From a virus (taxonomy: Duplodnaviria; Caudoviricetes), in the IMG/VR virus record IMGVR_UViG_3300035070_003276, positions 24,994-88,993 of that record: DNA of 64,000 nt; one strand, given 5' to 3'. A model generated the notes under the pieces. It ran no database searches, had not been told where the DNA came from, and was given only the letters and a program-made list of their open reading frames with translations. Each line of letters opens with the position of its first letter. Position 1 is the stretch's first letter. Made by a program: the position numbers and the translations under genes. Shown here piece by piece: positions 31,559 through 56,049 of the stretch.

Positions 31559-31585
31559 TTCTTTATAATTCTTTAGTTTTCTTTA
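31559..31585. repeat. three TTCTTTA heptamers at a 10-bp period (candidate operator)
   Basis: copies at 31559, 31569 and 31579, immediately 5' of the RHH start codon. Confidence 0.6.
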
Positions 31586-31587
31586 GA

Positions 31588-31595
31588 ATAAATAT
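31588..31595 (-). promoter_or_regulatory. putative late promoter for the RHH gene
   Basis: ATAAATAT on the plus strand reads ATATTTAT on the minus strand, 29 nt before the RHH ATG. Confidence 0.5.
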
Positions 31596-31614
31596 TTCAA
31601 TTATAAATTTTGGA

Positions 31615-31622
31615 ATATTTAT
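31615..31622 (+). promoter_or_regulatory. putative late promoter for the tail fibre gene
   Basis: ATATTTAT upstream of ATG 31650. Confidence 0.55.
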
Positions 31623-31649
31623 ATTGGAATCAACGGAATATATTCATCA

Positions 31650-37600: not shown

Positions 37601-40600
37601 CCCAGCTACTTCACAAACAACTACGATTAACGAAACATTCTATATTGTTTCGGATGGAGCCGATGGGTTATCAGCAATAACTGTTGTTAATACGAATCAA
37701 TCACATACATTACCTGCCTCATCTGATGGAGTAGTTTCATCTTATGTTGGTAGTGGTACTAATATTTTTGTATATGAGGGAACTGGTTCTCTATCGTATG
37801 ATGGGTTTGGTACATCAGTTGCAACTTGGAAAGTATCTTCTTCTATATCACCTGATAACGTAATTACTGTTGGTTCAATAACCGATAATGGTGATGATAT
37901 TACAATTGGTGATTATAGTGGAATGGATAGTGGTGAATCAATCGCAAATATTACACATACTATCACAGGTCGCAGGGTAAATGGGGATTCATTTACATCA
38001 GAAACAACGCAAACTATTACTAAGGCTAAGGGTGGTAGTGATGGTGCACCTGGTAGCTCTGGTGCTGGTGTAACTTATAGAGGTGAATGGGCAAATGATG
38101 CTGGTGTAACCTACAACTCATCAGATGCAAGAAAAGATGTTGTTAAATTTAATGGTGATTTCTATATTGCAGATTATGATGGTGGTGATACATTTGCTGG
38201 AAACATATCACCACCAAACGCAACTTATTGGACTACCTTTGGAGCACAATTTGAATCAGTAGCTACTGATATCTTATTCGCTGAAGATGTTTACGCTAAC
38301 CGAACTGTAAACATTGGTACTGGTGAAAGTGGAAACCCTGTAATTGCTCTGAACGCTGATTCATCATCTGGATACGCAAATCCATTCATATCAATTGGAC
38401 AAACCACACAAGGGTTTGAAAGTGATGGTATCTTTATGGGTTTTGATGAAGGAACTGCAAGTTTATCTTTAACTGGTGAAAATGTAAAAACAAACATTGG
38501 TGGATGGCAAGTCGATAAGAGTGGTTTATTTTATGAAACCGAATATTCTATTGGAGATGCAATAACAACTGAATTTTACGCAACATCATCACTTGCACCA
38601 GGTTCAATTCCAAACTGGCTATATTATTCTGGGATTTATAATGTAGTATATAATTATTATTTTGGTTCCGGAACCAACGGAGTACTTACAACTAATGATG
38701 CAGTAAAAATTTATACAAGAACACCTGACCCTTTTGGTAGTGGTTCACAAATGACTGCATATGGTCAAATCACAACAACTCATACTATCAATGGATATGA
38801 TGGGACTGGTGATTTGGGTGTATTTACATTAGAAGGACCTGCATTATATGCGGAATCATCATCCATTGATTTACTCACATATGTAACTTCATCTTTTGAT
38901 TTGAGTGCAGGTGGTCCTGGTGACACAAAAGCTGAAATAGTATGGCTAGATGGTGCTAATTTTATACAGGCCTTTGAAGCTGGTACTTCTCGTACTGTTC
39001 CATTAAATTGGGCGACTGTTGTAAATACAGCTTCATTTTCTGATAAGAATTGGTTAGGTACACCTGATTTTGCTCCACATACAAATGCATATGTATATAC
39101 CACAAACGTAAATGTAGGTTCATATATCTCAGAATCGGTTGCAATAAAATTAGCAACCATAGATGGTGGAAACTATTTGGATGCAGGTACTGACTCTCAA
39201 ATAGAAACTGAAATATACAACACTACCGGTCAAGACTGGGTTCTATCGGTGGATGGGCAAAACCCAGCTACCAATCAATTTATCTTATACACAATACACC
39301 GAACTGGTGAGATTATTGATACATTTGGTATGGGTACTGTTAAGGCTGGTCGTTTGGGTGAATCACTCATAACTGGTGATGCTATTCGATTATCAACATC
39401 TGGCTCTGATACTGGTACCGATAAGCCATTTATATCATTAGGACAATCAACTGCTGGATATGATAGGCGTGGGGTGTTCATCGGATTCCCATCAGCATCA
39501 GCATTTCCACATTTATCTATGAGAAGTCCTTCTGGTGATTTTATGAGATACAATGGGGATTCTATTCAATTTAGTGGTGATTTAACTGGTGGTTCAATTG
39601 AGGGTACTGATATTACTGGTGGTACTCTTAGTATTGGTTTAATTAGTGGTTCAACTAATCAATATAATTTTACTGTTGATAATCAAGGTAATGTATCCGC
39701 TTCAAATGCAGAATTAAGTGGTATCGTAAACGCTAATAGTGGTAGAATTGGCGATTGGGTAATTGATGTGGATACAAATTCATTAAGAGATAATAATTCT
39801 GAAATTATATTTGAACCAAACATACCTGAATTACAATTTTACACTGGTAGTGAAAAGAAGGTAATCATCGGACCACAACCCACACTATCCGATATAGCGG
39901 GTTCAACTGGGATTGAAATGACATTTAGTAGTTTAGCAAGTGCTACACCTGATGAAGGAATTAGTGTAACTAGCACAACACCTTACGGAATATCGTATAG
40001 TAATTATTCAACGGGTAGTGTAACAACAGGACCAACGGGTGGTACTATTCCTGTAGCGGTAGGTGATATACAAATTGGATTAACAACTCCAACGATGACA
40101 CTAAATCCACCCACTCAATTTATTTCACAAACAACATCATATCCAAATTATTCACCAACGTTTACGGGTCAACTACATGGTAGAGTATTCGGACCCAATA
40201 CCATTAAACAACGTGCCTATTTATATTTAGAAGTGGTTGATACAAATAATTCTGATGCGGTTATTGGTAGAAAATTAATAGCACAAACAAGTGAGGCTAG
40301 GAGTGCATATGCAGGTCCTGGTAATTATTATACTGGAACTTATACCGGTAATGGTGGTGGCGGTGAATTAACAGTATATTCAGTAGTTGGTAATACTAAA
40401 ATAACATTATCTGATGGTTCTACGATTTTGGCAAAAGATGTTAAAAAAGGACAAAAGATATTAGCTTGGAATTGGAATGATAAGATTGATACACATAATG
40501 GTGTTGATGGGTTTGATGTATTTACAATAGATGATGTTAAGAGTAGAACTACAACCAAAATATACAAAATAACAGTAGGTGATAAGGTTGTTGAAGTATC

Positions 40601-41714
40601 GGATTCTCATGGATTTTGGAAAGATAACAATGAGCAAATAAAAGCTACTGAACTTATAGCTGGTGAAAGTAAAATTTATGTAAAAGATGGTAATTCCATT
40701 TCATTACAATTGGTTGATGGTGTTGAAATATTAGAGGGTGATAAAGTATATACATTCTCAGTTCCTGGTGTTTACAACTATATATCAAATGATATTATAT
40801 CTCATAACATTTCTACTGGATATTGGACATACACAGACACCCAACAAGGTGGTGTGGCTGCTGTAAATGGTTCTTATACTGGTGCAGCTCAAACAATAAG
40901 CATACCAATAACAACTGCATCTACTGCAGCCGCATTCAGATATTCAATTAGGTTAAGTACCCTTGCTGGATATGTAGAAAATACCAATTCATCGGGTACA
41001 ATTACTACCAATTTTATATCATCAACAGCTGCATATAATAATACATCCACACCAGCAACCTCTACTACTGGATATCTACAACCAATAACAGTGGATACTG
41101 GATTAGACTTTTCTATTTCATCTAACTTTGTTGAAATAAAAGCTGGTGGAATTCAAGTAGTATCTGACCCATCGGTTTATGTTCAGATACCAAGAAAAGC
41201 ACCTGGTTCATCGAATCCAAATATATTCTATGCTCAAGGTGGACAATCTAACTTTAAATCACTGCAAGATGCTGGATTTACTTATGATGTTGGTATCGTT
41301 TGTGATGGTATGTTGCTGCCTGGACAAGATGACCATTGGGATTTGGGTAAGGGATCTGTTAGATGGGATGATATTTACGCTAGTAGTGGTATTGTAAACT
41401 CATCGGATAGAAATCAAAAATCGAATATTCAAACATCTGATTTAGGATTGGCATTCATAAATAGTTTAGTACCATCATCATATAAGTTCATTAGTGGTAG
41501 TGTTGGTAGAACTCACTATGGTTTAATTGCTCAAGATGTTGAAGCAACTTTAGATTCGTTTGATAAAACCTCAATTGATTTTGCTGGATTGATAACGGGT
41601 TCTAATTATGGATTAAGATATCACGAATTCATTTCACCAATGATTAAGGCAATTCAAGAGTTGACTAATAAGGTTACACAATTGGAAGCTCAAATTAGTG
41701 GTTCAAATACGTAA
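31650..41714 (+). CDS. giant tail fibre / receptor-binding protein (3354 aa) with Ig-like repeats, a Hint domain and a C-terminal S74 chaperone
   Basis: repeated DGxxG-delimited beta modules; RGxW carbohydrate-binding-like repeats; Hint and peptidase S74 motifs. Confidence 0.88.
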   Translation: MARIKKYSPEQNLSSFQTLIVDDNPNSDYFRITEFKDTFTGGKNGFLIEGSEYLKETTEIKIEILDVEGNPIFYEPAKGIPEYYEGISSLIAVYIYNDTPIGLGKITILGELKEYIDNDVKRTIPDVWKGTYNVKWERTFQINKILANEDRVRFFKRPQINIDEINKPIFNNNANLVTQIGNVNGIPLAPTAGTSLTEFSLPTSYRLNVSNGSNWTGSIEGNSISFDSIDYNPIVLDVVSETEIIVSPPYAPNGIVAPFSNESYTTSFNYLEGVSDLATALTGSFAKISITDMKTVVGDAARVKVYRRSQSNLTDYEFVQEIQLESNELLRDIETTEANEISYGTFTQDVLSQYWMTSSNDISVELNTGFLYNSTKLNSTEGNYFLTKQSFPIQSGVEYTLDFNVKKGSVSPTDFLKVTLSGSLNGTPKSQTIVNIPSSNAILQKRNFTENIIADDFDEARLYFEVDGVDWYVNNVSLKASQETSFSPDEITFIQQVPKTLQTETFDYRFEFYDINNNYIPVLVEDTKTFDGGNLNLFNKDITITPNNLYFSFDSASAPSNPLPPTTITFDVETTLVTGSITYTSGAYDEFGDLILSSEYVGGQYPGLMSGYETLSPTLTVADFTGSRDDITVQYIRFTGEVEGVSDDVVITRTQDGKGGVNFEIRPYRGTIIKNKDESTLEVQAIRIDGVNEIILKDNLPQNGFSDAKLRVQSGSEYILLSEAQSSGFIQGLTAGITGSGELNYNAVFDRTSITGQLPLYLMDGTTEQDILTTLLLTDLQDGLGAGFVTFDVEQFNINPKEDTTFTPQTASLAGNFYLRGTNESPISGTLQVFPSMSIDESLLPEYYMFFETGAFDNRITVTATNAQNEIIGSGIPGDSVDYYTPIDSKQLTFNFTYVEDFTSESISVDKTIFVAPDGLGIEPVVVSVDPLTLNLNSNQQGEVYSYTPLDTTITAKQGKLDLIYTGSEKPGTFYTESISTTNIEYTTESFTNTTLSLTGFQNMTSSLVANVDYNLKVYPYYTSSFQTQTITQRITKGVDGSDAVEILVEPSVVTLQANENGTVSDYSTANTDIVVKQGNLYLSYETSSLPGTYNVSATGSGIVVGDISASSQYDLDFGDETVHFTNFSELEGGSGSVDYNFVVFPYSLTNGVAGVVETYNKKQVFSKSNDGTAARSVSLSTTTEVVNFDGDGVVTSPLGSIFLEATAFNVTASQTYYQFFRDGFAYSLVGTEPTFEIGSGDATSPGETATWRVQIRDGQSNSPVVASSEVTIAGIKAGADNYQVFLTNPSPSVGVEVDGTTTLDTTGTQITALKGTTQLTHVSTYSDETLDLIGDPIGTIGEFSSSLYYVPPFITQPNIPNGNPANIDPITDWSTPQDNKAATIVYKVDIENGRATYFLSQSLSTVFEGATGPGIVVRGEWTGSVDYLFSLEQKRRDAVVYKYDNGGEQETHYFGTTNTLNDFKRLPYTSSVGITDEPSYDGTQEQGDVDTFGWEYLGQQDMFVAAKIAIFEESFVENTINVGIPPDGFPNANIAIVGGTDEPYIAIGQQGTQGFAQPGVFMGMTNDGGPNGTSGTMGILSLKSTPNGGEYKSLEWDGDTLTIRGSIRQTAAGVVEPSLRGTWADGVDYNPEDLVQYIGETWSSNTTHTSNISGGVTDGPPGTGPWTIAAGAGKNISLSADSYVIQYDEFGLNPIPSSTISLIASSSNFVDAYYKFTGGGAVFTDETSFTDGLTANTDTATLTVPSSYFSTPLTIKVAVSEGNQVEKLSDTITITALKSGADSTPQYMITPLTGTQIKNSSGNIELQVQESSINGLSDVNSGDIKIYKNDSSLLNASMSGVTGDEYNPTLDSDAITGTLNLQLRDVSDNVLDSITLVDVSDGLGGGSFISPNLKATRNPGYGIYNPTFLSATASFFDTSGTEYQKQVRITPSLSGVTDYMEVGTASGDSEITITANDGDGGSITLGGSSVATKDVVLVATFTDPATSQTTTINETFYIVSDGADGLSAITVVNTNQSHTLPASSDGVVSSYVGSGTNIFVYEGTGSLSYDGFGTSVATWKVSSSISPDNVITVGSITDNGDDITIGDYSGMDSGESIANITHTITGRRVNGDSFTSETTQTITKAKGGSDGAPGSSGAGVTYRGEWANDAGVTYNSSDARKDVVKFNGDFYIADYDGGDTFAGNISPPNATYWTTFGAQFESVATDILFAEDVYANRTVNIGTGESGNPVIALNADSSSGYANPFISIGQTTQGFESDGIFMGFDEGTASLSLTGENVKTNIGGWQVDKSGLFYETEYSIGDAITTEFYATSSLAPGSIPNWLYYSGIYNVVYNYYFGSGTNGVLTTNDAVKIYTRTPDPFGSGSQMTAYGQITTTHTINGYDGTGDLGVFTLEGPALYAESSSIDLLTYVTSSFDLSAGGPGDTKAEIVWLDGANFIQAFEAGTSRTVPLNWATVVNTASFSDKNWLGTPDFAPHTNAYVYTTNVNVGSYISESVAIKLATIDGGNYLDAGTDSQIETEIYNTTGQDWVLSVDGQNPATNQFILYTIHRTGEIIDTFGMGTVKAGRLGESLITGDAIRLSTSGSDTGTDKPFISLGQSTAGYDRRGVFIGFPSASAFPHLSMRSPSGDFMRYNGDSIQFSGDLTGGSIEGTDITGGTLSIGLISGSTNQYNFTVDNQGNVSASNAELSGIVNANSGRIGDWVIDVDTNSLRDNNSEIIFEPNIPELQFYTGSEKKVIIGPQPTLSDIAGSTGIEMTFSSLASATPDEGISVTSTTPYGISYSNYSTGSVTTGPTGGTIPVAVGDIQIGLTTPTMTLNPPTQFISQTTSYPNYSPTFTGQLHGRVFGPNTIKQRAYLYLEVVDTNNSDAVIGRKLIAQTSEARSAYAGPGNYYTGTYTGNGGGGELTVYSVVGNTKITLSDGSTILAKDVKKGQKILAWNWNDKIDTHNGVDGFDVFTIDDVKSRTTTKIYKITVGDKVVEVSDSHGFWKDNNEQIKATELIAGESKIYVKDGNSISLQLVDGVEILEGDKVYTFSVPGVYNYISNDIISHNISTGYWTYTDTQQGGVAAVNGSYTGAAQTISIPITTASTAAAFRYSIRLSTLAGYVENTNSSGTITTNFISSTAAYNNTSTPATSTTGYLQPITVDTGLDFSISSNFVEIKAGGIQVVSDPSVYVQIPRKAPGSSNPNIFYAQGGQSNFKSLQDAGFTYDVGIVCDGMLLPGQDDHWDLGKGSVRWDDIYASSGIVNSSDRNQKSNIQTSDLGLAFINSLVPSSYKFISGSVGRTHYGLIAQDVEATLDSFDKTSIDFAGLITGSNYGLRYHEFISPMIKAIQELTNKVTQLEAQISGSNT
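40380..40808 (+). other. Hint (intein-like / BIL-type) domain inside the tail fibre, aa 2911-3053
   Basis: SVVGNTKITLSDG (block A), VSDSHGF (block B), VYTFSVPGVYNYISNDIISHN (blocks F/G); the +1 residue is Ile. Confidence 0.85.
41403..41711 (+). other. peptidase S74 intramolecular chaperone domain
   Basis: SDRNQKSNI...LVPSSYKF...HYGLIAQDVE...LRYHEFISPMIKAIQEL followed by a coiled coil. Confidence 0.9.
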
Positions 41715-41728
41715 AACAAATTTAGTAT

Positions 41729-41736
41729 ATACTTAT
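41729..41736 (+). promoter_or_regulatory. putative late promoter
   Basis: ATACTTAT upstream of ATG 41763. Confidence 0.55.
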
Positions 41737-41762
41737 ATATAGATAATAAAAATAACTAAGTT

Positions 41763-42035
41763 ATGGAACAAAAAACAGAAACATTAGACCAATCGATAAT
41801 TGATAAACTAAAATCAATTCAAGAACTACAAAACAATATGGTAATTGGGTTGGGGCAAGTTGCGGTTCGAAGAAGAGAAATTGAAAAACAATCAGAAGAA
41901 CTTAATTCTAAAGAAATTGAATTTGGTAATAAGTTAGATTCATCAATGGATGAAATGAATTCAGAACTAGCCGAATTGGATAAAAAATACCCAAATGGAC
42001 AAATTGACTTAGATGCAGGAACAATAATTTACTAA
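41763..42035 (+). CDS. small coiled-coil protein, paralogue of 46593-46940
   Basis: LGQVAVRRREIE...KKYPNGQIDLDAGTI. Confidence 0.8.
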   Translation: MEQKTETLDQSIIDKLKSIQELQNNMVIGLGQVAVRRREIEKQSEELNSKEIEFGNKLDSSMDEMNSELAELDKKYPNGQIDLDAGTIIY

Positions 42036-42041: not shown

Positions 42042-42073
42042 TTTGGTAAATTAAAATATTCTTTGTATCTTTG
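42042..42073 (+). promoter_or_regulatory. Bacteroidota primary-sigma-type promoter (exact consensus match)
   Basis: TTTG-N20-TATCTTTG upstream of the glycosylation cassette. Confidence 0.75.
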
Positions 42074-42105: not shown

Positions 42106-44274
42106 ATGTCAAAAAAGAAATTGTTATACATATCATCTCACCTATCTACTGGTGGGATGCCACAATACCTATTAAAACAAATCGAAATATTTAAAGATGA
42201 TTTTGATATTGAGGTAATTGAGGTAAATAACCACAGTGGTGGTGTATTTGTAGTTCAGAAAGACCAAATCAATAATTTGGTTAAACTACATACATTGGGA
42301 GATGATAAATCTGAAATTGTTGATTTGATAGAATCTATCGAACCAAACATCATACATTTTACAGAAGTACCAGAACACTTTTTATCTTATGATATCTTAG
42401 ATAAGTTGTGGGTAAAATCACGTAAGTACAATATTGTAGCATCAACTCATGGGTCTGGGACAAATCCAGATGAAATTCGTTACCAACCTGATAGATATGT
42501 TTTAGTATCTGAGTGGAGTAGGAGAAAGTTTGAACATTTAGGAGTTGATACCAAAGTATGGGAATATCCAATAGAGAAGCAAATATTCAATAAATCTGAA
42601 TTTAAAAAAGAATTGGGATTTGAAGAAGATTGGAAGCATGTTCTTATGGTTGGGTTATTTACTGAAGGTAAGAATCAAGGTGAAATATTCAAAGTAGCAA
42701 GAATCTTAGAAAAGTATAAAATCAAATTCCATTTCGTTGGAAACCAAGCTATGAACTTTGAATCATATTGGGGGCCTATAATGAATAGTAAGCCTGATAA
42801 TTGTATAGTATGGGGTGAACGTAATGATGTAGATAAATTCTATAAAGCATCGGATATGTTCTATTTCAGTTCTAAGTTGGAATTGAATCCACTATCAATT
42901 AAAGAAGCATTAGGGTATGGGTTACAATGTATATTCAGAAGGTTACACACTTATTTGGATACATATGATTCTAATGAATTGGTTACGTATATTGATGATG
43001 ATATAAACAATACTAAGAAAATTATAATAGAGCTATTGGAACCTCAATTCAATGAGATACCAGGTTGGTTCGCATATGCGGGGTTATATGACCGAATGGT
43101 AAATAACGCTAAAGGTGGTGAGGTATTTGTAGAAGTTGGAAGTTGGTTGGGTAAATCATCTAATCATATGGCTACATCAATTACCAAATCAAAAAAGAAT
43201 ATAGATTTTACTGTTGTTGATACTTGGAAAGGTACTGATGATGAACAACTACATCAAAACATAGTTGGTTCATATGGTGGTGATATTTATGGTGAATTTG
43301 TGGAGAACACAATAATGAGTGATAACTTTGGTACATTCACTGCTATAAAAGATACCTCTGAAAACGCATCAACTCAATTCCAAAATGATTCTATTGATTT
43401 CATAATGATTGATGCTGGGCATGATTATACTTCTGTAAAAGATGATATCAAACGATGGTATCATAAAGTTAAATCTGGTGGATTTATTACGGGTGATGAT
43501 TATGGAGTTTTCAAAGGAGTTAATGATGCTGCTAATGAATTCTTTTATAATCAGATGTTAATTGATAATCGTAGTTTTGTTCGTAGGAAGCCAAAGATTC
43601 AGATAAAACATTTAATGACTCGACCAGATGATTTAAGAGAACGTATAAGTCAAGAATCATTAAAACAACTACAATCGTATGGTATGGATTACGAAGCTAT
43701 CGTAAACACACCTTATACTGATTTCCCACCAGCAGAACATTGTAGGAGACCACAACATATATCTCCAACTAATACACCTGGTGAACTTTCACCTGGTGCT
43801 GGTTTGGGTTGGATAACTGGAGGACATTATGGTTGTTATATGGCACATAGATTCGCATTAGAAACAATGAGTCCTGATTATGATTACACATTAGTATTTG
43901 AGGCAGATGCATATATCCATAGTGGATTAATGGAGTTTGTTGAGATTGTACATAAAGCATGTTTCATATCAGAAAGAGATAATGTACCATTTATATCATT
44001 TGCAGATAATCCATCAAACTCTAAAGAAAAGATAGATGAGTTGTTTAGTAAAACCGCACACAACCAAGATTTAGCACACGCATACTTAATCCCAAATAGA
44101 GAAAAGGGATGGTGGTTAGATAGAATAAAAGATTGTGAATGGGATGTAGCTGATTTATGGTACAATCACGTATTCTACCATCACCAAAGACCAAGATACA
44201 CAACTAATAAAATGTATTCAAATCAGGCTGAAGGATTTTCATTATTGGATTTAACAAATAAGACTTGGAAATGA
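42106..44274 (+). CDS. three-domain enzyme: GT-B (GT4-like) glycosyltransferase, class I SAM methyltransferase, GT-A (GT25-like) glycosyltransferase
   Basis: HLSTGGMPQY...SKLELNPLSIKEALG; FVEVGSWLGKS...DFIMIDAGHDY...GGFITGDDY; GHYGCYMAH...LVFEADA; ATG 42106 preferred to TTG 42100. Confidence 0.8.
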   Translation: MSKKKLLYISSHLSTGGMPQYLLKQIEIFKDDFDIEVIEVNNHSGGVFVVQKDQINNLVKLHTLGDDKSEIVDLIESIEPNIIHFTEVPEHFLSYDILDKLWVKSRKYNIVASTHGSGTNPDEIRYQPDRYVLVSEWSRRKFEHLGVDTKVWEYPIEKQIFNKSEFKKELGFEEDWKHVLMVGLFTEGKNQGEIFKVARILEKYKIKFHFVGNQAMNFESYWGPIMNSKPDNCIVWGERNDVDKFYKASDMFYFSSKLELNPLSIKEALGYGLQCIFRRLHTYLDTYDSNELVTYIDDDINNTKKIIIELLEPQFNEIPGWFAYAGLYDRMVNNAKGGEVFVEVGSWLGKSSNHMATSITKSKKNIDFTVVDTWKGTDDEQLHQNIVGSYGGDIYGEFVENTIMSDNFGTFTAIKDTSENASTQFQNDSIDFIMIDAGHDYTSVKDDIKRWYHKVKSGGFITGDDYGVFKGVNDAANEFFYNQMLIDNRSFVRRKPKIQIKHLMTRPDDLRERISQESLKQLQSYGMDYEAIVNTPYTDFPPAEHCRRPQHISPTNTPGELSPGAGLGWITGGHYGCYMAHRFALETMSPDYDYTLVFEADAYIHSGLMEFVEIVHKACFISERDNVPFISFADNPSNSKEKIDELFSKTAHNQDLAHAYLIPNREKGWWLDRIKDCEWDVADLWYNHVFYHHQRPRYTTNKMYSNQAEGFSLLDLTNKTWK

Positions 44275-45413
44275 TATACGATAAATTAAAAAAGAATAAA
44301 AACAATATTGTTGATATTAAGAATAGAGTTATTACTCATTTTGTAAGAGGACCATTTGTTGAGATATTGGGTAATATTGATGAAGAGTATAGAGTACAAT
44401 TTATTGATAAAAATACAAACACAATACGATTTGAAACCACAATAAGAAATAACAATTGGGCTAAATCAAATATAGAATATTGTATTGATTGGAAAGTGAG
44501 AGTACTCAAAGGGGATGATGTTTTCTATGAACATGATTTCAATCCAAATGGTAAACGTGTGTTTATATCGATGGGCTCACGAGCATTAGGTGATACATTA
44601 GCATGGTTTCCATATTTTGAAGAGTTTAGAAAAAAACACAACTGTGAATTGATTGTATCCACTTTCCACAATCATATGTTTGAAGAACAATACCCTCAGT
44701 TTGAATTTGTTAAACCGGGTTCAACTGTACCAAATTTATATGCAATGTATGATGTTGGTTTATTCTACAATGAGGATGGGAGTGTAAATGAATTAAAAAA
44801 TCCAAATGATTTTAAAACCCAAACAATGCAAAAGATGGGTTCCGATATATTGGGATTGGAATACAAAGAGATACGACCTTTACTACCCAAATCAAATGTT
44901 GTAAAGGATGATAAGTTAATAACTATTGCAATTCACGGAACCGCACAATCAAAATATTGGAACAATCCAACTGGTTGGCAAGATGTGGTTGATTGGTTAA
45001 ATGATAAAGGATATACAGTTAAGTTACTATCCAATGAAGGTGATAACTATATGGGTAACAAACATCCAAATGGAATTATACAACACCCATCGGGTCCATT
45101 AGAAGGTGTTATGGATGAGATGAGAAAATCAAAAGCATTCATAGGTATTGGGAGTGGTTTAAGTTGGTTAAGTTGGGCATTGAATACAAAGACTGTATTA
45201 ATAAGTGGGTTCTCATATGATTGGGCAGAAATGAGTGATTGTGTTAGAATTACACCACCCAAAGATAAATGTAGTGGGTGTTTTAATCGATTACGATTGG
45301 ATGCTGGTGATTGGAATTGGTGTCCAGACCATAAAGGAACGAATAGGCAATTTGAGTGTACTAAGGGTATATCATCCCAAATGGTAATTAACGAATTAGA
45401 AAAGTTCTTATAA
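44271..45413 (+). CDS. AAH/TibC-type (autotransporter strand-loop-strand) protein O-heptosyltransferase
   Basis: ALGDTLAWFPY, STAQ-like GTAQSKYWN, FIGIGSGLSWL, and four C-terminal Cys in CSGC...WCPDH...FEC matching the Fe-binding motif; ATGA-coupled start at 44271. Confidence 0.8.
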   Translation: MIYDKLKKNKNNIVDIKNRVITHFVRGPFVEILGNIDEEYRVQFIDKNTNTIRFETTIRNNNWAKSNIEYCIDWKVRVLKGDDVFYEHDFNPNGKRVFISMGSRALGDTLAWFPYFEEFRKKHNCELIVSTFHNHMFEEQYPQFEFVKPGSTVPNLYAMYDVGLFYNEDGSVNELKNPNDFKTQTMQKMGSDILGLEYKEIRPLLPKSNVVKDDKLITIAIHGTAQSKYWNNPTGWQDVVDWLNDKGYTVKLLSNEGDNYMGNKHPNGIIQHPSGPLEGVMDEMRKSKAFIGIGSGLSWLSWALNTKTVLISGFSYDWAEMSDCVRITPPKDKCSGCFNRLRLDAGDWNWCPDHKGTNRQFECTKGISSQMVINELEKFL

Positions 45414-45802
45414 TGAAAAAAGTATGGATGAATGGATGTTTTGATGTTCTACATCATGCTCATTTTAAAATGATTGAGTTCGCATCTACATTTGGTGAGT
45501 TAGTTGTTATTGGAATTGATTCTGATAAACGAGTAAAAGAACTAAAAGGAGATGATAGACCATTTCATTCAGAGGAAGAACGTAAGTATAATTTAGAACG
45601 AATTAAAGGAGTGAGTAAAGTTATAATATTCGATTCTGAGTTAATGTTGGAAGAGGCTATTAAACGATATCAACCAGATGTTTTTGTTATTGGCTCTGAT
45701 TATAAAGATAAAAACATAGTTGGCGAATCGTATAGTAAATCAATGGTTTTCTTTAATAGAATGGAAGATTTTAGTACAACAAAAATATTAACAAATGAGT
45801 AA
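45413..45802 (+). CDS. rfaE2: heptose-1-phosphate nucleotidyltransferase (HldE/RfaE domain II-like)
   Basis: NGCFDVLHHAH HIGH motif; DSDKRVKELKGDDRP; GSDY; STT. Confidence 0.82.
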   Translation: MKKVWMNGCFDVLHHAHFKMIEFASTFGELVVIGIDSDKRVKELKGDDRPFHSEEERKYNLERIKGVSKVIIFDSELMLEEAIKRYQPDVFVIGSDYKDKNIVGESYSKSMVFFNRMEDFSTTKILTNE

Positions 45803-46541
45803 AGTACTTTTAATAGGAGAGAGTTGTATGGATATTTTTATCTATGGAAATACTCCACGTCTTTCACCTGAAGGACCAGCTCCTGTTTTTAACCCAACCA
45901 ATGAAAGGTATAATGGTGGGATGGCATTAAATGTACAATCTAATTTAGAATCGTTAGGTGTTGATGTTGATATCATAACACATAATTCTACCATAACAAA
46001 AACGAGATTTGTACACGAATCATCTAACACACTTTTATTGAGAGTTGATGAAGGTGATAACGTAGATAGGCTTGATAGAAGTAAATTACCAAATAATTAT
46101 TGGGATTATGATATGGTAGTTATATCAGATTATAACAAAGGATTTTTAAATGATGATGATATCGCTCATATAGCATTTAACCATCCTATCACAATTTGCG
46201 ATACCAAAAAGAAATTAGGTGAATGGTGTAGAGATTTAAAATTTATCAAATTAAATAGAACTGAATATTTAAATAACCAATCATTTATTAGTGATAATGA
46301 ATGGATTGTTGAAAAACTTATAATCACACTTGATAAAGATGGGTGTAAACACAATGGTGTTATGTATCCAACTGAGAAAGTTGAGATTATGGATATATCG
46401 GGAGCAGGTGATACTTTCGTAGCAGGATTCACTATGAAGTATATAGAAAGTTCGGATGTAATTGAATCAATAAAATTCGGAAATAACTGCGCATCTCAAG
46501 TAGTACAAAAAAGAGGTGTAACAATTATAACGAAAACATAA
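45795..46541 (+). CDS. rfaE1: heptose-7-phosphate kinase (HldE/RfaE domain I-like, PfkB family)
   Basis: RLSPEGPAPV, GGMALNV, TKTRF, LLRVD, SDYNKG and DISGAGDTF motifs. Confidence 0.85.
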   Translation: MSKVLLIGESCMDIFIYGNTPRLSPEGPAPVFNPTNERYNGGMALNVQSNLESLGVDVDIITHNSTITKTRFVHESSNTLLLRVDEGDNVDRLDRSKLPNNYWDYDMVVISDYNKGFLNDDDIAHIAFNHPITICDTKKKLGEWCRDLKFIKLNRTEYLNNQSFISDNEWIVEKLIITLDKDGCKHNGVMYPTEKVEIMDISGAGDTFVAGFTMKYIESSDVIESIKFGNNCASQVVQKRGVTIITKT

Positions 46542-46548
46542 TTTATGT

Positions 46549-46556
46549 ATATTTAT
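46549..46556 (+). promoter_or_regulatory. putative late promoter
   Basis: ATATTTAT upstream of ATG 46593. Confidence 0.55.
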
Positions 46557-46592
46557 ATATGAATTCAAAAACAATTTTTAATTAAAAATATT

Positions 46593-46940
46593 ATGGCAAA
46601 CGAAGAAATTCAAAAAATCGAATTGGTTACTAGAGAACTAGGTGAAGATGTGGTAACCCCAATTAAAGAAGCTAATGATGAGATATCTCAGTTAGTAAAC
46701 GTATTCGGACAACTTTATCTAAGAAGAAAAGAGTTGGAAGATGAGATGGTAAAACTTGAAGAAGGATTGGAAAGGGCAGAAGCTGATTTCAAGGAGAAAA
46801 ATGAAGCTCTAAGAGGTTTGGTAGGTGAACTTGAAAAAGAATACCCAAGAGGACAAATTAATCTACAAGAAGGTACAATTACATTTGACCCATCTATCAA
46901 AGAGAAGATGGCTCAGCAAATGGAAGTTGTAAAACAATAA
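46593..46940 (+). CDS. small coiled-coil protein, paralogue of 41763-42035
   Basis: FGQLYLRRKELE...KEYPRGQINLQEGTI. Confidence 0.8.
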   Translation: MANEEIQKIELVTRELGEDVVTPIKEANDEISQLVNVFGQLYLRRKELEDEMVKLEEGLERAEADFKEKNEALRGLVGELEKEYPRGQINLQEGTITFDPSIKEKMAQQMEVVKQ

Positions 46941-46946
46941 AATCCT

Positions 46947-46954
46947 ATATTTAT
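46947..46954 (+). promoter_or_regulatory. putative late promoter
   Basis: ATATTTAT upstream of ATG 46983. Confidence 0.55.
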
Positions 46955-46982
46955 ATAGTACAATAGAAAACGTACTATTATA

Positions 46983-49466
46983 ATGAATGATTTATCTAAC
47001 TTTTTAGTAGAAAGTATATTATTGGAAGCGGACAGTGTAGACAACAAAGTTGTAGTTTACGCTGGCCGTTTTCAACCTTTTCATAAAGGTCATTATGCTA
47101 CTTACTCACATTTAGTAAAGAAGTTTGGAAAGGATAATGTATATATCGGAACATCTAATAAAACCGATAATCAAAAATCACCTTTTAACTTCAAAGAGAA
47201 GAAGCAAGTAATGATTACAATGTTTGGTATTCCCTCAAACAAAATCGTTGAAGTAAAGAATCCATATGTACCAACTGAGGTACTTAAAAAATTTAATGAA
47301 GATACTACGGCATTTATCACAGTTGTTGGTAAGAAAGATGCAAGTAGATTAGGTGGTAAGTTCTTTACTCCTTATAAAGATAACTTAGAATTTGAAGGAT
47401 ATAAAGATAAGGGGTACGTTTATATAGCTCCTCAACAATCAAACCCAATAAGTGGAACTGATGTTAGGATGGGATTGAGAAAAGGTTCTGATGAAGATAA
47501 GAAGCAATTCTTTACTAAAAGAGCATATGGTAAGTTCAACCCAAAAATATTTAAATTTATAGCTGGTAAGTTATCACAACTACCAGAGATAACATCTGAG
47601 GAAATCTTTATCCCAAAACACATAATCGAAAATTGGATAGTTGATAACGTTGAGTTAATCAAAGAAGCATCTAAGATAGGTGGTTCTACTGAAGTGGATG
47701 ATGGTCCTAACTTTGTGTTTCCATCATATGCATCATTTGATAAAGTTTCTAAGAAACGAGCCGAAGCAATTGGATACACTGTTTTATCACAAATAATGAG
47801 TGATGAACTTACTGATATAGATTCACATCCTATATATCCAAAAGGACCTGTAAAAGCAGTAACACCATTTCCTGCTGGGGTAATTGGTAAAACGACTGCA
47901 ACTAACCAAAAAGATTTTTATGGTTCACAAGCCTATAATTTATGGTTTAAACATGCAACTCGATTTGCTAGTTTAGTAGGATACTCAGTACTTGATTCTA
48001 TTGATACTGATAATGATGAGGTTGAGGCTAAAAAAACTAAAAAAGTAAAAGACCCAAATACAAATATTGTAAAAGAAGATATTACGATTCCAATTAATAT
48101 AGGTGATACTGTATTAGGTGGTAAGTTTAAAAATAAACGTATTGTAGTTAAAACAATTGGCAAAAACGAAAAGGGTGATATTACTATAAATGGTAAACCA
48201 CTTTTAAAAGTTAGAATTATAGAAGAGGGTGTTTTAGTTGAATTTTCTGGAGAAGAGATTAGTTGTGAAAAATGTAATCATTCTTGGGAAATGGAATCCG
48301 ATGATAATGAAAAGTATTTCTGTCATAATTGTGGATTTGATAATCAATCAAAGGAATATGATTTAGATAAATTGGATGATTGGAAACGTTCACATAATAT
48401 TATTAAAGAGATATCATCAGAAGATAGAACTTTGATTTATCAACTAACTACTAAGGCATTAAAAACAATGCCAAACTCCCAAAAACAAAAGGAGATAATC
48501 AAACAACTAAACAAAGTTAGAGTTAAGAATGGTATGAAACCTTTGAAAGAAAACTTCTTAGGTATCACATTAAATGAGGCATCGTTAACTATTTCAATAG
48601 CAAACATTGTAAGGGATTTATTCCCAAAGGAGTTTTTCTACGCATATAAGCCAAATGATGTTGAGCAAATGAAAGCAACAATTGGTGATTTAGTAAACAT
48701 CTTAAATCGTTTCTATAAACAACACAACGTAAAAGTACGATTTACCAATACCGATTTTAAATATAAAATGTACTCCAATGAAGGGGTTGAACTAAACGAA
48801 TTTGGTGGTGTTAGATTTGATTTGGTTGGATATGATGGTAACAACAAACCAGTCCTAAAAACAATTAAAAGGTCTGCAGACTCATTCTCAACTGATGTTG
48901 CAGGATATGGTTCTGAAAAATTATTCAAAAGTGGTAAGGGTGTTGAGTATGTAAAAATATACTATGATAAACATCACTTAATGACCGTAAAGGATGGTGG
49001 TAGAGAGCAAATCAAAGAAAAGGGATGGGGTAAGTTACCAATCAATGAAATCCCAATGGGAGACCTTCAAAAGATTGATACATTTGCTGATAAACAATTA
49101 AAACCAGTGGATGTGGTTCTAACTGGTAAACATTTCTTTGATAGATTAAATGACCCAAGAAACGGAAAAGAAGTAACAAATGCTGAGTTGATTGGTTTCT
49201 TTAAAAGATTGGGTAAAAAGAAAAAAGAATTTGTGAACTTCCTTAATCAATATAATCAGATTGTAGCAAAGGATAATAGAACTAATTTGAACATTCCATT
49301 TATGAAACAAGCGAATAAAGTAATCGCTAAAACCATAATGAGAAAAGATGATTTCAAAACATCAGACCCGGAATATAAATTTGAAAAATTAGAAAAGGAA
49401 AAGTTGAAATACAATGAACCATACGCTTTAAGTGGTGGTATCTCTGAATCAACTAATAAAAAGTAA
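46983..49466 (+). CDS. multi-module protein with an N-terminal HIGH-family nucleotidyltransferase, a zinc ribbon and further small modules
   Basis: AGRFQPFHKGH and ISGTDVR; CEKC...CHNC; C-terminal HFFDRLNDPRN module. Confidence 0.75.
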   Translation: MNDLSNFLVESILLEADSVDNKVVVYAGRFQPFHKGHYATYSHLVKKFGKDNVYIGTSNKTDNQKSPFNFKEKKQVMITMFGIPSNKIVEVKNPYVPTEVLKKFNEDTTAFITVVGKKDASRLGGKFFTPYKDNLEFEGYKDKGYVYIAPQQSNPISGTDVRMGLRKGSDEDKKQFFTKRAYGKFNPKIFKFIAGKLSQLPEITSEEIFIPKHIIENWIVDNVELIKEASKIGGSTEVDDGPNFVFPSYASFDKVSKKRAEAIGYTVLSQIMSDELTDIDSHPIYPKGPVKAVTPFPAGVIGKTTATNQKDFYGSQAYNLWFKHATRFASLVGYSVLDSIDTDNDEVEAKKTKKVKDPNTNIVKEDITIPINIGDTVLGGKFKNKRIVVKTIGKNEKGDITINGKPLLKVRIIEEGVLVEFSGEEISCEKCNHSWEMESDDNEKYFCHNCGFDNQSKEYDLDKLDDWKRSHNIIKEISSEDRTLIYQLTTKALKTMPNSQKQKEIIKQLNKVRVKNGMKPLKENFLGITLNEASLTISIANIVRDLFPKEFFYAYKPNDVEQMKATIGDLVNILNRFYKQHNVKVRFTNTDFKYKMYSNEGVELNEFGGVRFDLVGYDGNNKPVLKTIKRSADSFSTDVAGYGSEKLFKSGKGVEYVKIYYDKHHLMTVKDGGREQIKEKGWGKLPINEIPMGDLQKIDTFADKQLKPVDVVLTGKHFFDRLNDPRNGKEVTNAELIGFFKRLGKKKKEFVNFLNQYNQIVAKDNRTNLNIPFMKQANKVIAKTIMRKDDFKTSDPEYKFEKLEKEKLKYNEPYALSGGISESTNKK

Positions 49467-50719: not shown

Positions 50720-50730
50720 TAGAAAACCTA

Positions 50731-50738
50731 ATACTTAT
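50731..50738 (+). promoter_or_regulatory. putative late promoter
   Basis: ATACTTAT upstream of ATG 50761. Confidence 0.55.
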
Positions 50739-50760
50739 ATATATGAATATATAATAGGTT

Positions 50761-53698: not shown

Positions 53699-53710
53699 AT
53701 GAATTTTTTT

Positions 53711-53718
53711 ATATTTAT
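53711..53718 (+). promoter_or_regulatory. putative late promoter
   Basis: ATATTTAT upstream of ATG 53736. Confidence 0.55.
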
Positions 53719-53735
53719 ATAGTATAGAATTTATT

Positions 53736-55980: not shown

Positions 55981-55990
55981 AATAAAACTT

Positions 55991-55998
55991 ATATTTAT
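55991..55998 (+). promoter_or_regulatory. putative late promoter
   Basis: ATATTTAT upstream of ATG 56050. Confidence 0.55.
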
Positions 55999-56049
55999 AT
56001 ACGGAAAACTTGCGTATAAGGAATATATTATTATAGGGTAAACAACGTA

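Follow-up and report, generated by a model that had tools for sequence, protein, structure and literature searches.

The closest described relatives of the enzymes considered here are TibC and Aah of E. coli (family TIGR04414), bacterial autotransporter heptosyltransferases (BAHT) that act in the cytoplasm on TibA and AIDA-I, respectively. TibC (structures 4RAP and 4RB4) consists of an N-terminal beta-barrel, a GT-B core, a beta-hairpin thumb with a hydrophobic tip, and a four-cysteine iron finger, and its substrates are beta-helices (PMC4358343). Both TibC and Aah are encoded near the gene for a long, repetitive, Ser/Thr-rich fibrous protein. The ADP-heptose pathway comprises GmhA, the HldE kinase, GmhB, and the HldE adenylyltransferase.

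Other known glycosylation systems also invite comparison. BclA of Bacillus anthracis is a G-x-T triplet-repeat fibre whose threonines carry O-linked oligosaccharides ending in a methylated sugar. Freeman and colleagues reportedly found in 2023 that mycobacteriophage glycosyltransferases encoded beside structural genes O-glycosylate capsid and tail-tube proteins. In PBCV-1, the protein A064R (Rha-transferase / Rha-transferase / O-methyltransferase) builds the capsid glycan, and the glycosyltransferase genes of the virus are expressed early (PMC9614988).

The window (the whole 64,000-nucleotide stretch of viral DNA analysed here) contains four translationally coupled genes at 42106–46541 on the plus strand, hereafter the cassette. 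They are carried by an uncultured, lytic, T4-like phage, probably of a Bacteroidota host. The relevant features are as follows.

4885–6336, plus strand: exported protein of 483 aa with a signal peptide, a Gly/Ser/Thr/Asp-rich tract of ~170 aa, and a strand-rich C-terminal domain; alternative candidate acceptor
31650–41714, plus strand: giant tail fibre of 3354 aa (Ser/Thr 22%) with a C-terminal S74 chaperone domain; candidate acceptor
38034–38069, plus strand: vestigial collagen-like linker GSDGAPGSSGAG (fibre aa 2129–2140), ahead of a conserved VTYRGEW module
41763–42035, plus strand: coiled-coil protein of 90 aa with a late-type promoter motif; upstream flank of the cassette, paralogue of the protein at 46593
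42042–42073, plus strand: Bacteroidota sigma-A-type promoter (-33 TTTG, 20-nt spacer, -7 TATCTTTG) within the 64 nt that precede the cassette
42106–44274, plus strand: gene 1, tri-enzyme of 722 aa with an N-terminal GT4 (GT-B), a central TylF-like sugar O-methyltransferase, and a C-terminal GT25-like GT-A domain
44271–45413, plus strand: gene 2, predicted TibC/Aah-family (BAHT) protein O-heptosyltransferase of 380 aa, phage/GTS branch
45413–45802, plus strand: gene 3, predicted HldE-domain-II-like sugar-1-phosphate nucleotidyltransferase of 129 aa, motif FDVLHHAH
45795–46541, plus strand: gene 4, predicted compact HldE-domain-I-like (HldA-type) heptose-7-phosphate kinase of 248 aa
46593–46940, plus strand: coiled-coil paralogue of 115 aa with a late-type promoter motif; downstream flank of the cassette

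The open reading frames of the cassette (42100/42106–44274, 44265/44271–45413, 45413–45802, and 45795–46541, all plus strand) overlap by 4 nt (ATGA, with ATG 44271), 1 nt, and 8 nt at their junctions, and relatives use ATG 42106 and ATG 44271 as the starts of genes 1 and 2. Gene order is conserved in 79–80 of 80 related loci, fetched from 426 in IMG/VR, and a chance arrangement is therefore excluded. The recurrent order is fibre, 90-aa protein, tri-enzyme (found in 79 of the 80 loci), BAHT, HldE-like pair where present, 115-aa protein and, further on, TerL and portal; the order of the BAHT gene beside fibre genes recurs in hundreds of phages. The junctions, domains, and conserved order bear out the initial annotation of four coupled genes.

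On balance, sequence comparisons favour reading the cassette as phage-encoded machinery for O-glycosylating the phage’s own fibre proteins, a reading in which we infer both target and sugar throughout. The host would supply D-glycero-D-manno-heptose 7-phosphate via GmhA, as well as a GmhB-type phosphatase, and the phage kinase and nucleotidyltransferase would increase the flow towards an NDP-heptose. The TibC-like enzyme, acting in the cytoplasm, would attach the first heptose to Ser/Thr residues of the fibre, principally in proline-free Gly-Ser/Thr-Ser collagen-like tracts, which are vestigial in the 3354-aa fibre and giant in the downstream fibres of relatives. The tri-enzyme would then attach further sugars and an O-methyl cap. 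If this is true, the sugar coat would make the fibres stiffer, more soluble, or better protected, or would tune adsorption. We found no paper describing virion glycosylation of this kind, on a phage’s Ser/Thr-rich, collagen-like fibres.

Judged from its sequence and predicted model, gene 2 is a genuine, structurally complete TibC/Aah-family glycosyltransferase, in agreement with the AAH/TibC-like heptosyltransferase with all four cysteines that had been annotated. It scores 269.8 bits against TIGR04414 (hepto_Aah_TibC; cut-off 200), and a PDB search returns TibC with an E-value of 2e-49. The model (pLDDT 93.4) matches TibC 4RAP/4RB4 with a TM of 0.86–0.87 over ~381 columns and shares its barrel, GT-B core, thumb with a hydrophobic tip, and iron finger, the cysteines at 336/339/353/365 aligning with TibC Cys339/342/358/370. 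The catalytic Asp110, the contact residues Thr226, Lys230, and Trp301, and the four cysteines are invariant across 56 distinct phage sequences. By homology, the phage enzyme presumably also acts in the cytoplasm, and it too is encoded near a long, repetitive, Ser/Thr-rich fibrous protein.

The phage enzyme nevertheless belongs to a separate, deep, and phage-rich branch of the family (SH-aLRT 100). Unlike TibC and Aah, members of this phage/GTS branch have no autotransporter, their partners being proline-free (Gly-Thr/Ser-Ser)n proteins and phage fibres; here, the gene belongs to a lytic T4-like phage, and extra glycosyltransferase and methyltransferase domains accompany the enzyme. In Mel-JY01, L085, L097, and L099, BAHT is fused with other such domains. 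Throughout the branch, the adenine-contacting Arg286 of TibC is replaced by Val/Ile (Val in the window’s enzyme), and the C6-stereo residue (Pro300/Ser294) by Gly. Consequently, ADP-heptose can be named only as the presumed donor.

Gene 1 had been annotated as a GT/MTase/GT fusion, a description on which Pfam and Foldseek agree. Pfam matches cover GT1/GT4 (aa 165–315), Methyltransf_24/TylF (344–485), and, weakly, GT25 (572–620), and the fold of the predicted model (pLDDT 72) bears out all three domains, with Foldseek matches to BshA (GT4), the sugar O-methyltransferases MeT1/NovP/MycF/SpnH, and the GT25-like COLGALT1 and Mimivirus R655. Like PBCV-1 A064R, the tri-enzyme combines two glycosyltransferase domains and a sugar O-methyltransferase in one viral polypeptide, and in PBCV-1 the glycan is carried by the virus’s own structural protein, with early glycosyltransferase genes and a late target protein. 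However, PBCV-1 is a eukaryotic giant virus with N-linked capsid-protein glycans and glycosyltransferase families unrelated to those of the phage cassette. Its domain order is GT-GT-MT rather than GT-MT-GT, and the activity of A064R has been demonstrated, whereas the tri-enzyme is known from sequence and a model. The mycobacteriophage cassettes are likewise said to place glycosyltransferases within the structural block, with the phage’s own virion proteins as targets, but they involve other glycosyltransferase families, no heptose pathway, and an actinobacterial host, and their acceptors are capsid and tube proteins, modified at the C-terminal tails, rather than collagen-like fibre tracts.

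The two small genes, annotated as HldE domains, are indeed HldE-like. Their closest families are HldE (RfaE) of E. coli and the split HldA/HldC of Burkholderia, and both proteins fall below the curated cut-offs of their best-matching models, rfaE_dom_II for the nucleotidyltransferase (98 bits, cut-off 181.5) and rfaE_dom_I for the kinase (122 bits, cut-off 345). The nucleotidyltransferase matches cytidylyltransferase-fold enzymes in the PDB, 5x9q among them, and its HxGH-type motif, FDVLHHAH, is present in 28 of 28 distinct relatives. The N-terminus of the kinase has the HldA-type motif and aligns with residues 54–110 of Burkholderia HldA (4e84); DISGAGDT is present, and GAGD is found in all 24 relatives, with lengths of 242–248 aa. 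Unlike in E. coli HldE, the phage domains are split and reversed in order (nucleotidyltransferase first), and the kinase is trimmed relative to HldE/HldA. The pair lies directly 3' of the BAHT gene in 40 of 79 loci, with catalytic motifs retained in all, and is dispensable in the 34 (43%) from which it is missing. This absence counts against fibre glycosylation.

Family scans of the window’s open reading frames agree with the initial annotation that no autotransporter, GmhA, or GmhB is present, and GmhA, GmhB, and the SIS family were also absent from the window, two near-complete relatives, and two partial relatives. The suggested search of the rest of the genome for gmhA and gmhB, run on these four relatives, thus returned neither. 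The idea that the phage makes its own NDP-heptose does not survive: the cassette has two of the four pathway enzymes, and 34 of 79 loci lack even these, so the host pathway would be boosted rather than replaced. Among 201 genomes sampled from the phylum to which G005 belongs (Bacteroidetes), 128 encode an HldE-type kinase. The activation of ALPK1 by ADP-heptose, which had also been raised, is irrelevant to a phage from the environment.

It is conceivable, if unlikely, that the sugar is not heptose or that the donor is not ADP-linked, the branch having changed its donor. The HldE-like pair would then be an anomeric kinase and a nucleotidyltransferase, forming a two-step salvage route without GmhA and GmhB. 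This alternative concerns chemistry only and fits any target. The residue lost at position 286 reads adenine N1 in TibC and is needed for activity; since it is gone and both HldE-like proteins fall below their cut-offs, the donor may not be ADP-heptose. The Gly at the C6-stereo position, a kinase 60–70 residues short of the family model, the failure to find GmhA and GmhB, and the loci without the pair are consistent with such a change. However, rfaE domains I and II remain the top families, the HldA-specific N-terminal motif is retained, and the residues with which TibC holds the heptose O4 and the beta-phosphate (Trp301, Thr226, and Lys230) do not vary. In addition, the bacterial members of the branch occur in Proteobacteria, which make ADP-heptose, and have no sugar-activation genes nearby.

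Comparative evidence from sequences points to proline-free Gly-Ser/Thr-Ser (GTS) collagen-like tracts as the acceptor of the branch. Of the 20 loci of the branch from bacteria or MAGs, 15 have a G-X-Y run of 8 or more triplets within 4 kb (40–67% Ser/Thr in 14), compared with 1 of 60 classical BAHT loci (Fisher p = 3.5e-11). The bacterial partners are secreted signal-peptide or lipoprotein (GTS)n proteins, proline-free and not autotransporters, which form two-gene islands with BAHT amid housekeeping genes. In L085, BAHT is partnered by a GTS fibre that, judged by eye, has a C-terminus like that of the window’s S74-ended fibre. The repeats of BclA, by contrast, are Pro-rich and belong to an exosporium protein rather than a phage fibre, and its enzymes are unrelated, with rhamnose and anthrose as sugars.

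For the phage, sequence context makes a fibre protein the most likely acceptor. The 3354-aa protein carries a C-terminal Peptidase_S74 chaperone domain (aa 3252–3302) and is therefore a fibre; it is matched by 55 of the 80 loci and, where the fetched flank is long enough, always adjoins the cassette on the upstream side. It has only four GTS-type triplets, a remnant tract, and relatives have 7–18 G-T/S-x triplets in place of GSDGAPGSSGAG, with GTS runs at this position of the fibre gene in 17 of 80 phage loci. No GTS gene occurs within the 64-kb window. Close relatives encode giant GTS fibres of up to 4018 aa ~45 kb downstream, past the window’s end; the 4018-aa fibre, with 404 triplets, is that of G310, which is ~91% nucleotide-identical to the window’s end. 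BAHT and giant GTS genes occur in the same genome in the near-complete relatives G002 and G311, and no collagen-like repeat was found in Flavobacterium phage immuto, which is the closest relative among cultured phages that lack BAHT. The giant genes lie 27–57 kb from BAHT, and adjacency, the main argument in bacteria, therefore fails for them. Thus, the earlier proposal of a phage fibre as acceptor stands, but the adjacent Ser/Thr-rich fibre retains just its remnant, and the giant GTS fibres sit elsewhere. That giant GTS fibres are known only from relatives tells against fibre glycosylation.

A version that we regard as doubtful, in line with the initial annotation, has as acceptor not a GTS tract but either the whole S74-tipped fibre or the protein at 4885–6336, modified before export. 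Sugar would then sit on Ser/Thr of beta-rich modules, as in the beta-helices of TibA/AIDA-I that are the substrates of TibC-type enzymes (PMC4358343). The position and Ser/Thr content of the fibre fit this version, and in three relatives (G002, G003, and G004) the stretch fetched upstream of the cassette contains no G-X-Y run reaching 5 triplets. The protein at 4885, a possible acceptor, combines a signal peptide with a Gly/Ser/Thr tract, as do the bacterial partners; its richest 60-aa stretch is 92% Ser, Thr, and Gly, and Pfam and PHROG searches gave no match. However, its homologue occurs in just one of four relatives (G001), and the branch associates with strict period-3 GTS repeats rather than beta-helices or irregular Gly/Ser linkers, the enzyme adjoining GTS fibres in Mel-JY01 and L085.

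Of 41 distinct relatives, 34 retain the full promoter motif TTTG-N20-TATCTTTG upstream of the cassette, and a Bacteroidota-type promoter also precedes the primase gene at 26502. The ‘consensus host promoter’ previously annotated holds for the Bacteroidota type but not for sigma-70, a scan for which gave no match above chance. The structural genes flanking the cassette have the late-type motif ATAyTTATAT. If the cassette serves the fibres, its host-type promoter would allow enzymes and donor pool to accumulate ahead of the late fibre genes. The mismatch with the fibre genes’ late motif speaks against fibre glycosylation, and an early or host-type promoter suits a host- or DNA-directed role equally.

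A host-directed cassette would remodel the envelope (LPS core, other glycolipids, surface proteins) during infection, to block superinfection or stop progeny re-adsorbing to debris. Glycosyltransferases that marine T4-like phages encode in their tail-fibre regions are usually read in this way, and rfaE and glycosyltransferase genes in the host-recognition cluster of pelagimyophages have been interpreted accordingly (PMC7029224). The conserved, presumably early promoter, the GT9, GT4, and GT25 families typical of LPS synthesis, and a Ugd-like gene at 30571 would fit. We nevertheless consider it improbable. Gene 2 scores 269.8 bits with the protein-heptosyltransferase model but 24 with that for LPS heptosyltransferase I, its fold is TibC-like and not that of WaaC (TM 0.48), and it retains the beta-barrel, thumb, and iron finger that hold TibC’s protein substrate. 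BAHT occurs in 0 of 300 other sampled genomes of the phylum of G005, so no such host system is known there, and the cassette has a fixed position within the structural block of a lytic T4-like phage.

Heptose hypermodification of hydroxymethylated pyrimidines in phage DNA, modelled on metagenomic phage clusters in which a HAD/APH-like kinase, a cytidylyltransferase-fold enzyme, and a GT-B DNA glycosyltransferase yield mono- and di-heptosyl-5hmC (preprint 10.1101/2023.12.21.572611), would fit the early-type promoter but is very improbable, as the reported DNA glycosyltransferases resemble T4 beta-GT whereas gene 2 is homologous to TibC over its full length, the methyltransferase domain is like those of sugar O-methyltransferases and not of DNA methyltransferases, a thymidylate-synthase-like gene occurs in G001 only and not in the 96%-complete G002, and the TET/JBP family was not found in four relatives (controls were also silent for that model).

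The 90-aa and 115-aa coiled-coil proteins that flank the cassette match each other in searches of the related loci, and the 115-aa protein is present in all 80.

The four-gene cassette lies between a 3354-aa fibre protein (31650–41714) and the terminase block. The window has an overall G+C content of about 32% and encodes T4-like myovirus proteins, namely the Gp23 capsid protein, a prohead protease, the gp25 baseplate wedge, the large terminase, and the portal. The genes of the cassette are:

42106–44274, + strand: gene 1, a 722-aa tri-enzyme (GT4, sugar O-methyltransferase, and GT25-like parts)
44271–45413, + strand: gene 2, BAHT, a predicted protein O-heptosyltransferase of the TibC/Aah family (380 aa from the ATG at 44271)
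45413–45802, + strand: gene 3, an HldE-like nucleotidyltransferase (129 aa)
45795–46541, + strand: gene 4, an HldE-like kinase (248 aa)

Because their junctions overlap by 4, 1, and 8 nt, the four genes are coupled, as the initial annotation had it. Relatives of BAHT are widespread in metagenomes, with more than 3,300 related-protein clusters (at 90% identity), most of them 65–93% identical, and 426 loci in IMG/VR. Gene order was compared in 80 fetched loci out of these 426. The common order is fibre, 90-aa coiled-coil protein, tri-enzyme, BAHT, the HldE pair where present, a 115-aa paralogue of the coiled-coil protein, and, further on, TerL and portal. This arrangement is widespread and not a product of chance. 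A search of 50,697 phage records with the cassette gave no match by megablast, and tblastn found matches in four records only. By terminase, the closest cultured phages are Microcystis phage Mel-JY01 and Flavobacterium phage immuto (56% each). Comparisons reaching beyond the window drew on the related phage genomes G001–G004 and G310–G312.

Profile, fold, and catalytic residues all place BAHT in the TibC/Aah family. On TIGR04414 (cut-off 200) its score is 269.8 bits, with LPS heptosyltransferase I as the runner-up family at 24 bits. Its AlphaFold model (pLDDT 93.4) aligns with TibC (4RAP/4RB4) over the full length in Foldseek, with a TM-score of 0.86–0.87 across 371–384 columns, versus at most 0.52 for GT9 structures, including WaaF and WaaC (0.48 for the latter). 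The model has the architecture of the TibC protomer: an N-terminal flattened beta-barrel, a GT-B domain, a thumb formed by a beta-hairpin, and an inserted iron finger. In TibC, the catalytic base is Asp110, and the donor is contacted by Thr226, Lys230, and Trp305 (PMC4358343). BAHT has the corresponding residues (Asp110, Thr226, Lys230, and Trp301) in a gap-free alignment, and none of them varies across 56 distinct phage sequences. Also invariant are Cys336, Cys339, Cys353, and Cys365, which match TibC 339, 342, 358, and 370 and are predicted to form the iron-coordinating finger. The earlier identification of an AAH/TibC-like heptosyltransferase with all four cysteines is thus borne out by profile score, fold, and alignment. 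In TibC, the thumb, with two hydrophobic residues at its tip, and the iron finger hold together a ring-shaped dodecamer. The BAHT thumb is three residues shorter than that of TibC, its hydrophobic tip (Tyr262-Met263) is invariant, and Phe363 (equivalent to Phe368) is kept. From sequence and model together, BAHT is predicted to work like TibC and Aah.

Two positions of the donor pocket nevertheless differ from those of TibC. TibC Arg286 contacts adenine N1, and activity is abolished or largely diminished in the R286A mutant, while Pro300 (Ser294 in Aah) sets the preference for D,D- or L,D-heptose, that is, C6 stereoselectivity (PMC4358343). At the first position, the window's enzyme has Val282, and phage sequences have Val (55 of 56) or Ile (1 of 56). 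At the second, it has Gly296, which is invariant in the phages, versus mostly Ser in classical loci. Consequently, neither the donor nucleotide nor its stereochemistry can be transferred from TibC to this enzyme, and the residue-level donor determinants of TibC are not valid family-wide. A third family-typical feature, the autotransporter partner, is also missing: in agreement with the initial annotation, no autotransporter family was found among the window ORFs scanned. Lacking all three features, BAHT is classed as a distinct branch with a different class of partner.

The branch extends to bacteria. When the 56 phage sequences were aligned with 80 homologues from bacteria or MAGs, the classical loci (from Burkholderiaceae, Acetobacteraceae, Reyranella, Selenomonadales, and others) proved 30–36% identical to the phage enzyme. 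A second set, from Methylococcaceae, Polaromonas, and several MAG-binned phage contigs, is 46–56% identical and combines Val, Ile, or Leu with Gly, as in phages. At the Arg286 position, all 20 bacterial or MAG branch members have V, I, L, M, or T, versus Arg in all 60 classical loci. A long branch divides the two groups in the maximum-likelihood tree (SH-aLRT 100).

The genes adjoining these enzymes also separate the two groups. A run of at least eight G-X-Y triplets occurs within 4 kb of BAHT in 15 of the 20 branch loci (bacteria and MAGs), versus 1 of the 60 classical loci (Fisher p = 3.5e-11), and in 14 of those 15 the run is 40–67% Ser/Thr. The bacterial partner proteins begin with a signal peptide or lipobox, followed by nearly pure (GTS)n, where GTS denotes proline-free, collagen-like (Gly-Ser/Thr-Ser) triplets. 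In Methylobacter luteus, for instance, BAHT and a 287-aa protein matching Pfam Collagen form a two-gene island between mfd and DUF2845. The bacterial islands are flanked by unrelated housekeeping genes, and no sugar-nucleotide gene that could serve as a clue to the donor was found among these neighbours. At one locus (L085), it is a phage fibre containing GTS tracts that serves as partner; its C-terminus resembles, by eye, that of the window's fibre. Members of this branch have GTS-repeat proteins or phage fibres as partners, not autotransporters. Islands pairing a secreted protein or lipoprotein of the (GTS)n kind with a phage-type BAHT are seen at loci L086–L104 (Methylococcaceae, Polaromonas, and others). 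At the Polaromonas loci, a conserved protein of approximately 315 aa with no Pfam match lies directly upstream of BAHT.

Among the phages, Mel-JY01 (PP395634.1) has its BAHT at the C-terminal end of a larger protein (1226 aa, annotated as ‘FkbM methyltransferase’), and just upstream (1–3050, + strand) is a 1016-aa collagen-like open frame with Pfam Collagen matches and up to 149 consecutive G-S/T-S triplets. The GenBank annotation has two minus-strand hypothetical ORFs there (1–651 and 739–2298), and is probably on the wrong strand at 1–3050. The N-terminal anchor of the Mel-JY01 fibre, at 187.7–188.9 kb of the record, matches the window's fibre. Phage immuto has neither BAHT nor collagen-like repeats; as a single negative control, it is consistent with the association of the two.

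At the C-terminus of the window's own 3354-aa protein is a Peptidase_S74 intramolecular chaperone domain, a hallmark of fibres and spikes. GTS runs occur within the fibre gene at 17 of the 80 phage loci, and those examined stand immediately ahead of a conserved (I/V)x(Y/F)RGEW module. At that position (aa 2129–2140), the window's fibre has a four-triplet remnant, GSDGAPGSSGAG, and no run of five or more triplets exists in any frame across the 64-kb window. Nor is there a GTS tract in the first 10 kb past the window in the closest relative, where tracts occur further on. In this lineage, the giant GTS fibres are encoded far from BAHT and outside the window, as seen in relatives. Genome G002 (168 kb) has BAHT at 87.4 kb and GTS genes at approximately 114 kb and 136–145 kb; G311 (252 kb, 100% complete) has BAHT at 87.3 kb and collagen-like frames of 4590 and 3867 aa at 135–144 kb. 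Genome G310 shares the final 3 kb of the window (91% identical in nucleotides) and codes for a fibre of 4018 aa that contains 404 G-X-Y triplets, followed by another GTS protein, at least 825 aa long. Within the fibre's repeat region, a segment of 1,055 residues consists of 40% Ser, 34% Gly, and 17% Thr. Projected onto window coordinates, these G310 genes would fall at approximately 82–99 kb. Ahead of the GTS fibre, G310 also encodes a 2090-aa Ser-rich protein (G310:C1:15743–22015), so the lineage has at least three giant fibre-like proteins.

Glycosylation of fibres, with GTS tracts as the main acceptor, is, on indirect evidence, the best supported reading of the cassette, and we regard it as somewhat more probable than not. 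In this lineage, the GTS genes do not adjoin BAHT. The reading can be extended, more tentatively and with slightly less than an even chance of being right as a whole, to the entire branch. A deep, phage-rich branch of the TibC/Aah family would have switched its acceptor from autotransporter beta-helices to proline-free (Gly-Ser/Thr-Ser)n tracts, and its donor pocket would have been re-tooled through loss of the adenine-reading Arg. In T4-like phages of Bacteroidota, BAHT, the tri-enzyme, and the phage's own HldE boosters would then produce densely heptosylated fibres of micrometre scale, resembling mucin-like rods. The small (GTS)n lipoproteins of methanotrophs and Polaromonas would carry the same modification.

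Gene 3 has rfaE_dom_II as its top family at 98 bits (cut-off 181.5), with TagD-type cytidylyltransferase at 62 bits, and in the PDB cytidylyltransferases and 5x9q give similar scores; its HxGH-type motif is kept in 28 of 28 distinct relatives. Gene 4 has rfaE_dom_I as its top family at 122 bits (cut-off 345), retains the HldA-type N-terminal motif, and keeps GAGD in 24 of 24 distinct relatives, although its 248 aa are about 65 residues short of the roughly 315 in the family model. The pair is a variable element: both genes are present at 40 loci, the nucleotidyltransferase alone at 5, and neither at 34.

The ADP-heptose pathway also needs the isomerase GmhA and the phosphatase GmhB, and these were sought in the relatives. 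Neither GmhA (TIGR00441, and the general SIS_2 PF13580) nor GmhB (TIGR00213) had a match in G001 (100% complete), G002 (96%), or the partial genomes G003 and G004. The window ORFs contain no SIS or HAD family, in line with the initial annotation, which had seen neither gene there. That annotation also proposed that the phage makes its own NDP-heptose; that it does so alone is contradicted by these searches and by the 34 loci without the pair. In the phylum to which genome G005 belongs (Bacteroidetes in its record), an HldE-type kinase is common: of 201 genomes sampled, 128 have one. On the simplest reading, heptose 7-phosphate and the phosphatase come from the host, and the phage's own pair enhances two of the steps, which would explain why 43% of related phages do without it. 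For fibres that have more than a thousand Ser/Thr per chain, the demand for donor in each burst would presumably be very large, and an HldE-like booster would then be useful. Putative heptose-activating enzymes travelling with BAHT in this sub-lineage are the best available clue to the sugar. A sugar or nucleotide other than that of ADP-heptose, which the altered pocket would allow and which is compatible with any target, seems unlikely, though with an appreciable chance.

The tri-enzyme would add further sugar chemistry. Pfam assigns Glycos_transf_1 to aa 165–315 and Methyltransf_24/TylF to 344–485, and a GT25 match is sub-threshold. A sequence search against the PDB gave no match, and the domain assignments rest on fold searches with an AlphaFold model (24 relatives; mean pLDDT 72, high in the methyltransferase and C-terminal domains). 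These match the N-terminus to BshA (GT4), the middle to the sugar O-methyltransferases MeT1, NovP, MycF, and SpnH, and the C-terminus to human collagen galactosyltransferase COLGALT1 (GT25) and Mimivirus R655. PBCV-1 A064R is a functional analogue.

As to the target, the acceptor could instead be the whole of the neighbouring S74 fibre, or else an exported 483-aa protein rich in Gly and Ser (4885–6336), which has a homologue in one of four relatives. We consider these acceptors unlikely.

Remodelling of the host envelope is less probable again. Both the fold and the family of BAHT are of the protein-modifying type, and the BAHT family was found in 0 of 300 other genomes sampled from G005's phylum. 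The promoter is compatible with a host-directed function and with fibre glycosylation alike. The 64-nt gap before the cassette contains TTTG-N20-TATCTTTG, the consensus for the Bacteroidota primary sigma factor, and the full motif is kept in 34 of 41 distinct relatives at 60–95% protein identity. The cassette (42106) and the primase gene (26502) share this host-type promoter in the form AATTTGG...N...TATnTTT(G/A). The consensus host promoter of the initial annotation therefore holds for a Bacteroidota-type motif but not for sigma-70. Sigma-70 sites number 25 versus 35.7 expected, with none convincing before the cassette, and this candidate was replaced by the Bacteroidota -33/-7 motif.

A host-type promoter suggests early expression of the cassette, which fits pre-loading of enzymes and donor for fibre glycosylation and fits a host-directed function equally well. 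The glycosyltransferases of PBCV-1 are expressed early (PMC9614988). A different motif, ATAyTTATAT, resembles the T4 late promoter and precedes the fibre gene, both small genes flanking the cassette, and several head-region genes; lying ahead of most structural genes, it is probably the late promoter of the lineage. Its intergenic sites include 7928–7987, 17091–17114, 22648–22711, 24557–24648, 31396–31649, 41715–41762, 46542–46592, 46941–46982, 50720–50760, 53699–53735, and 55981–56049. No terminator-like site was found between the upstream late gene and the cassette, so late read-through is possible.

Glycosylation of DNA is very improbable, as no hydroxymethylation or TET genes were found and BAHT is unlike the described T4 beta-GT-like DNA glycosyltransferases (10.1101/2023.12.21.572611). 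The lack of TET/JBP families in relatives is a weak negative, since control genomes were also silent for the model. A thymidylate-synthase-like gene occurs in one relative only (G001:C1:199671–200753, 322 bits); it is absent from the 168-kb relative, whose cassette locus is identical to that of the 270-kb G001 despite a difference in content of about 100 kb.

To our knowledge, the only proteins known to be O-heptosylated are a few bacterial autotransporter adhesins, and virion glycosylation is documented for only a few groups of phages. Mycobacteriophage virion glycosylation is parallel in overall arrangement, with unrelated enzymes. The literature was searched in full text for phage BAHTs, for the pairing of collagen-like proteins with heptosyltransferases, and for Mel-JY01, with no paper found on any of the three. 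The present lineage, a very abundant one of environmental phages, has a true relative of TibC as a constant component of its structural block, and the branch-specific link to Gly-Ser/Thr-Ser repeats provides a concrete acceptor candidate. Fibre glycosylation at these repeats would be novel as a form of virion glycosylation, and a widespread one, and would give protein heptosylation a new class of substrate. If confirmed, it would explain the LPS-like genes beside the fibres of these phages, bear on host range and particle stability in water, and offer a small set of enzymes with which designed collagen-like proteins could be glycosylated. The window adds a BAHT that stands alone and is coupled directly to HldE-like genes, which hints at the donor; differences from TibC in residues of the donor pocket; an early-type promoter; evidence of an accessory HldE pair with GmhA and GmhB missing; and the finding, made in relatives, that the giant GTS fibres of this lineage are encoded far from the enzyme.

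Several other genes of the window merit mention. A Bacteroidota host is supported by the host-type promoter, by the kinship with a Flavobacterium phage, and by a sorting domain in the 643-aa protein at 1831–3762. This protein combines a cohesin-like domain with a C-terminal sorting domain for type IX secretion, which at 25.8 bits scores slightly under the cut-off, hinting at such a host and at an exported phage protein. The paralogous small coiled-coil proteins at 41763–42035 and 46593–46940, which end in YP(N/R)GQI(D/N)L..GTI, bracket the cassette in nearly all relatives; our guess is that they are fibre-assembly chaperones of the T4 gp57A kind. The 827-aa protein at 46983–49466 opens with an NMN-adenylyltransferase-like HIGH nucleotidyltransferase. 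The parts that follow differ between relatives or are exchanged for others, and its tblastn match is partial or missing at many loci. Just upstream of the fibre gene, a 274-aa protein (30571–31395) has the NAD-binding and central domains of a UDP-glucose/GDP-mannose dehydrogenase without the C-terminal domain, and may represent another sugar-nucleotide function or a truncated gene.
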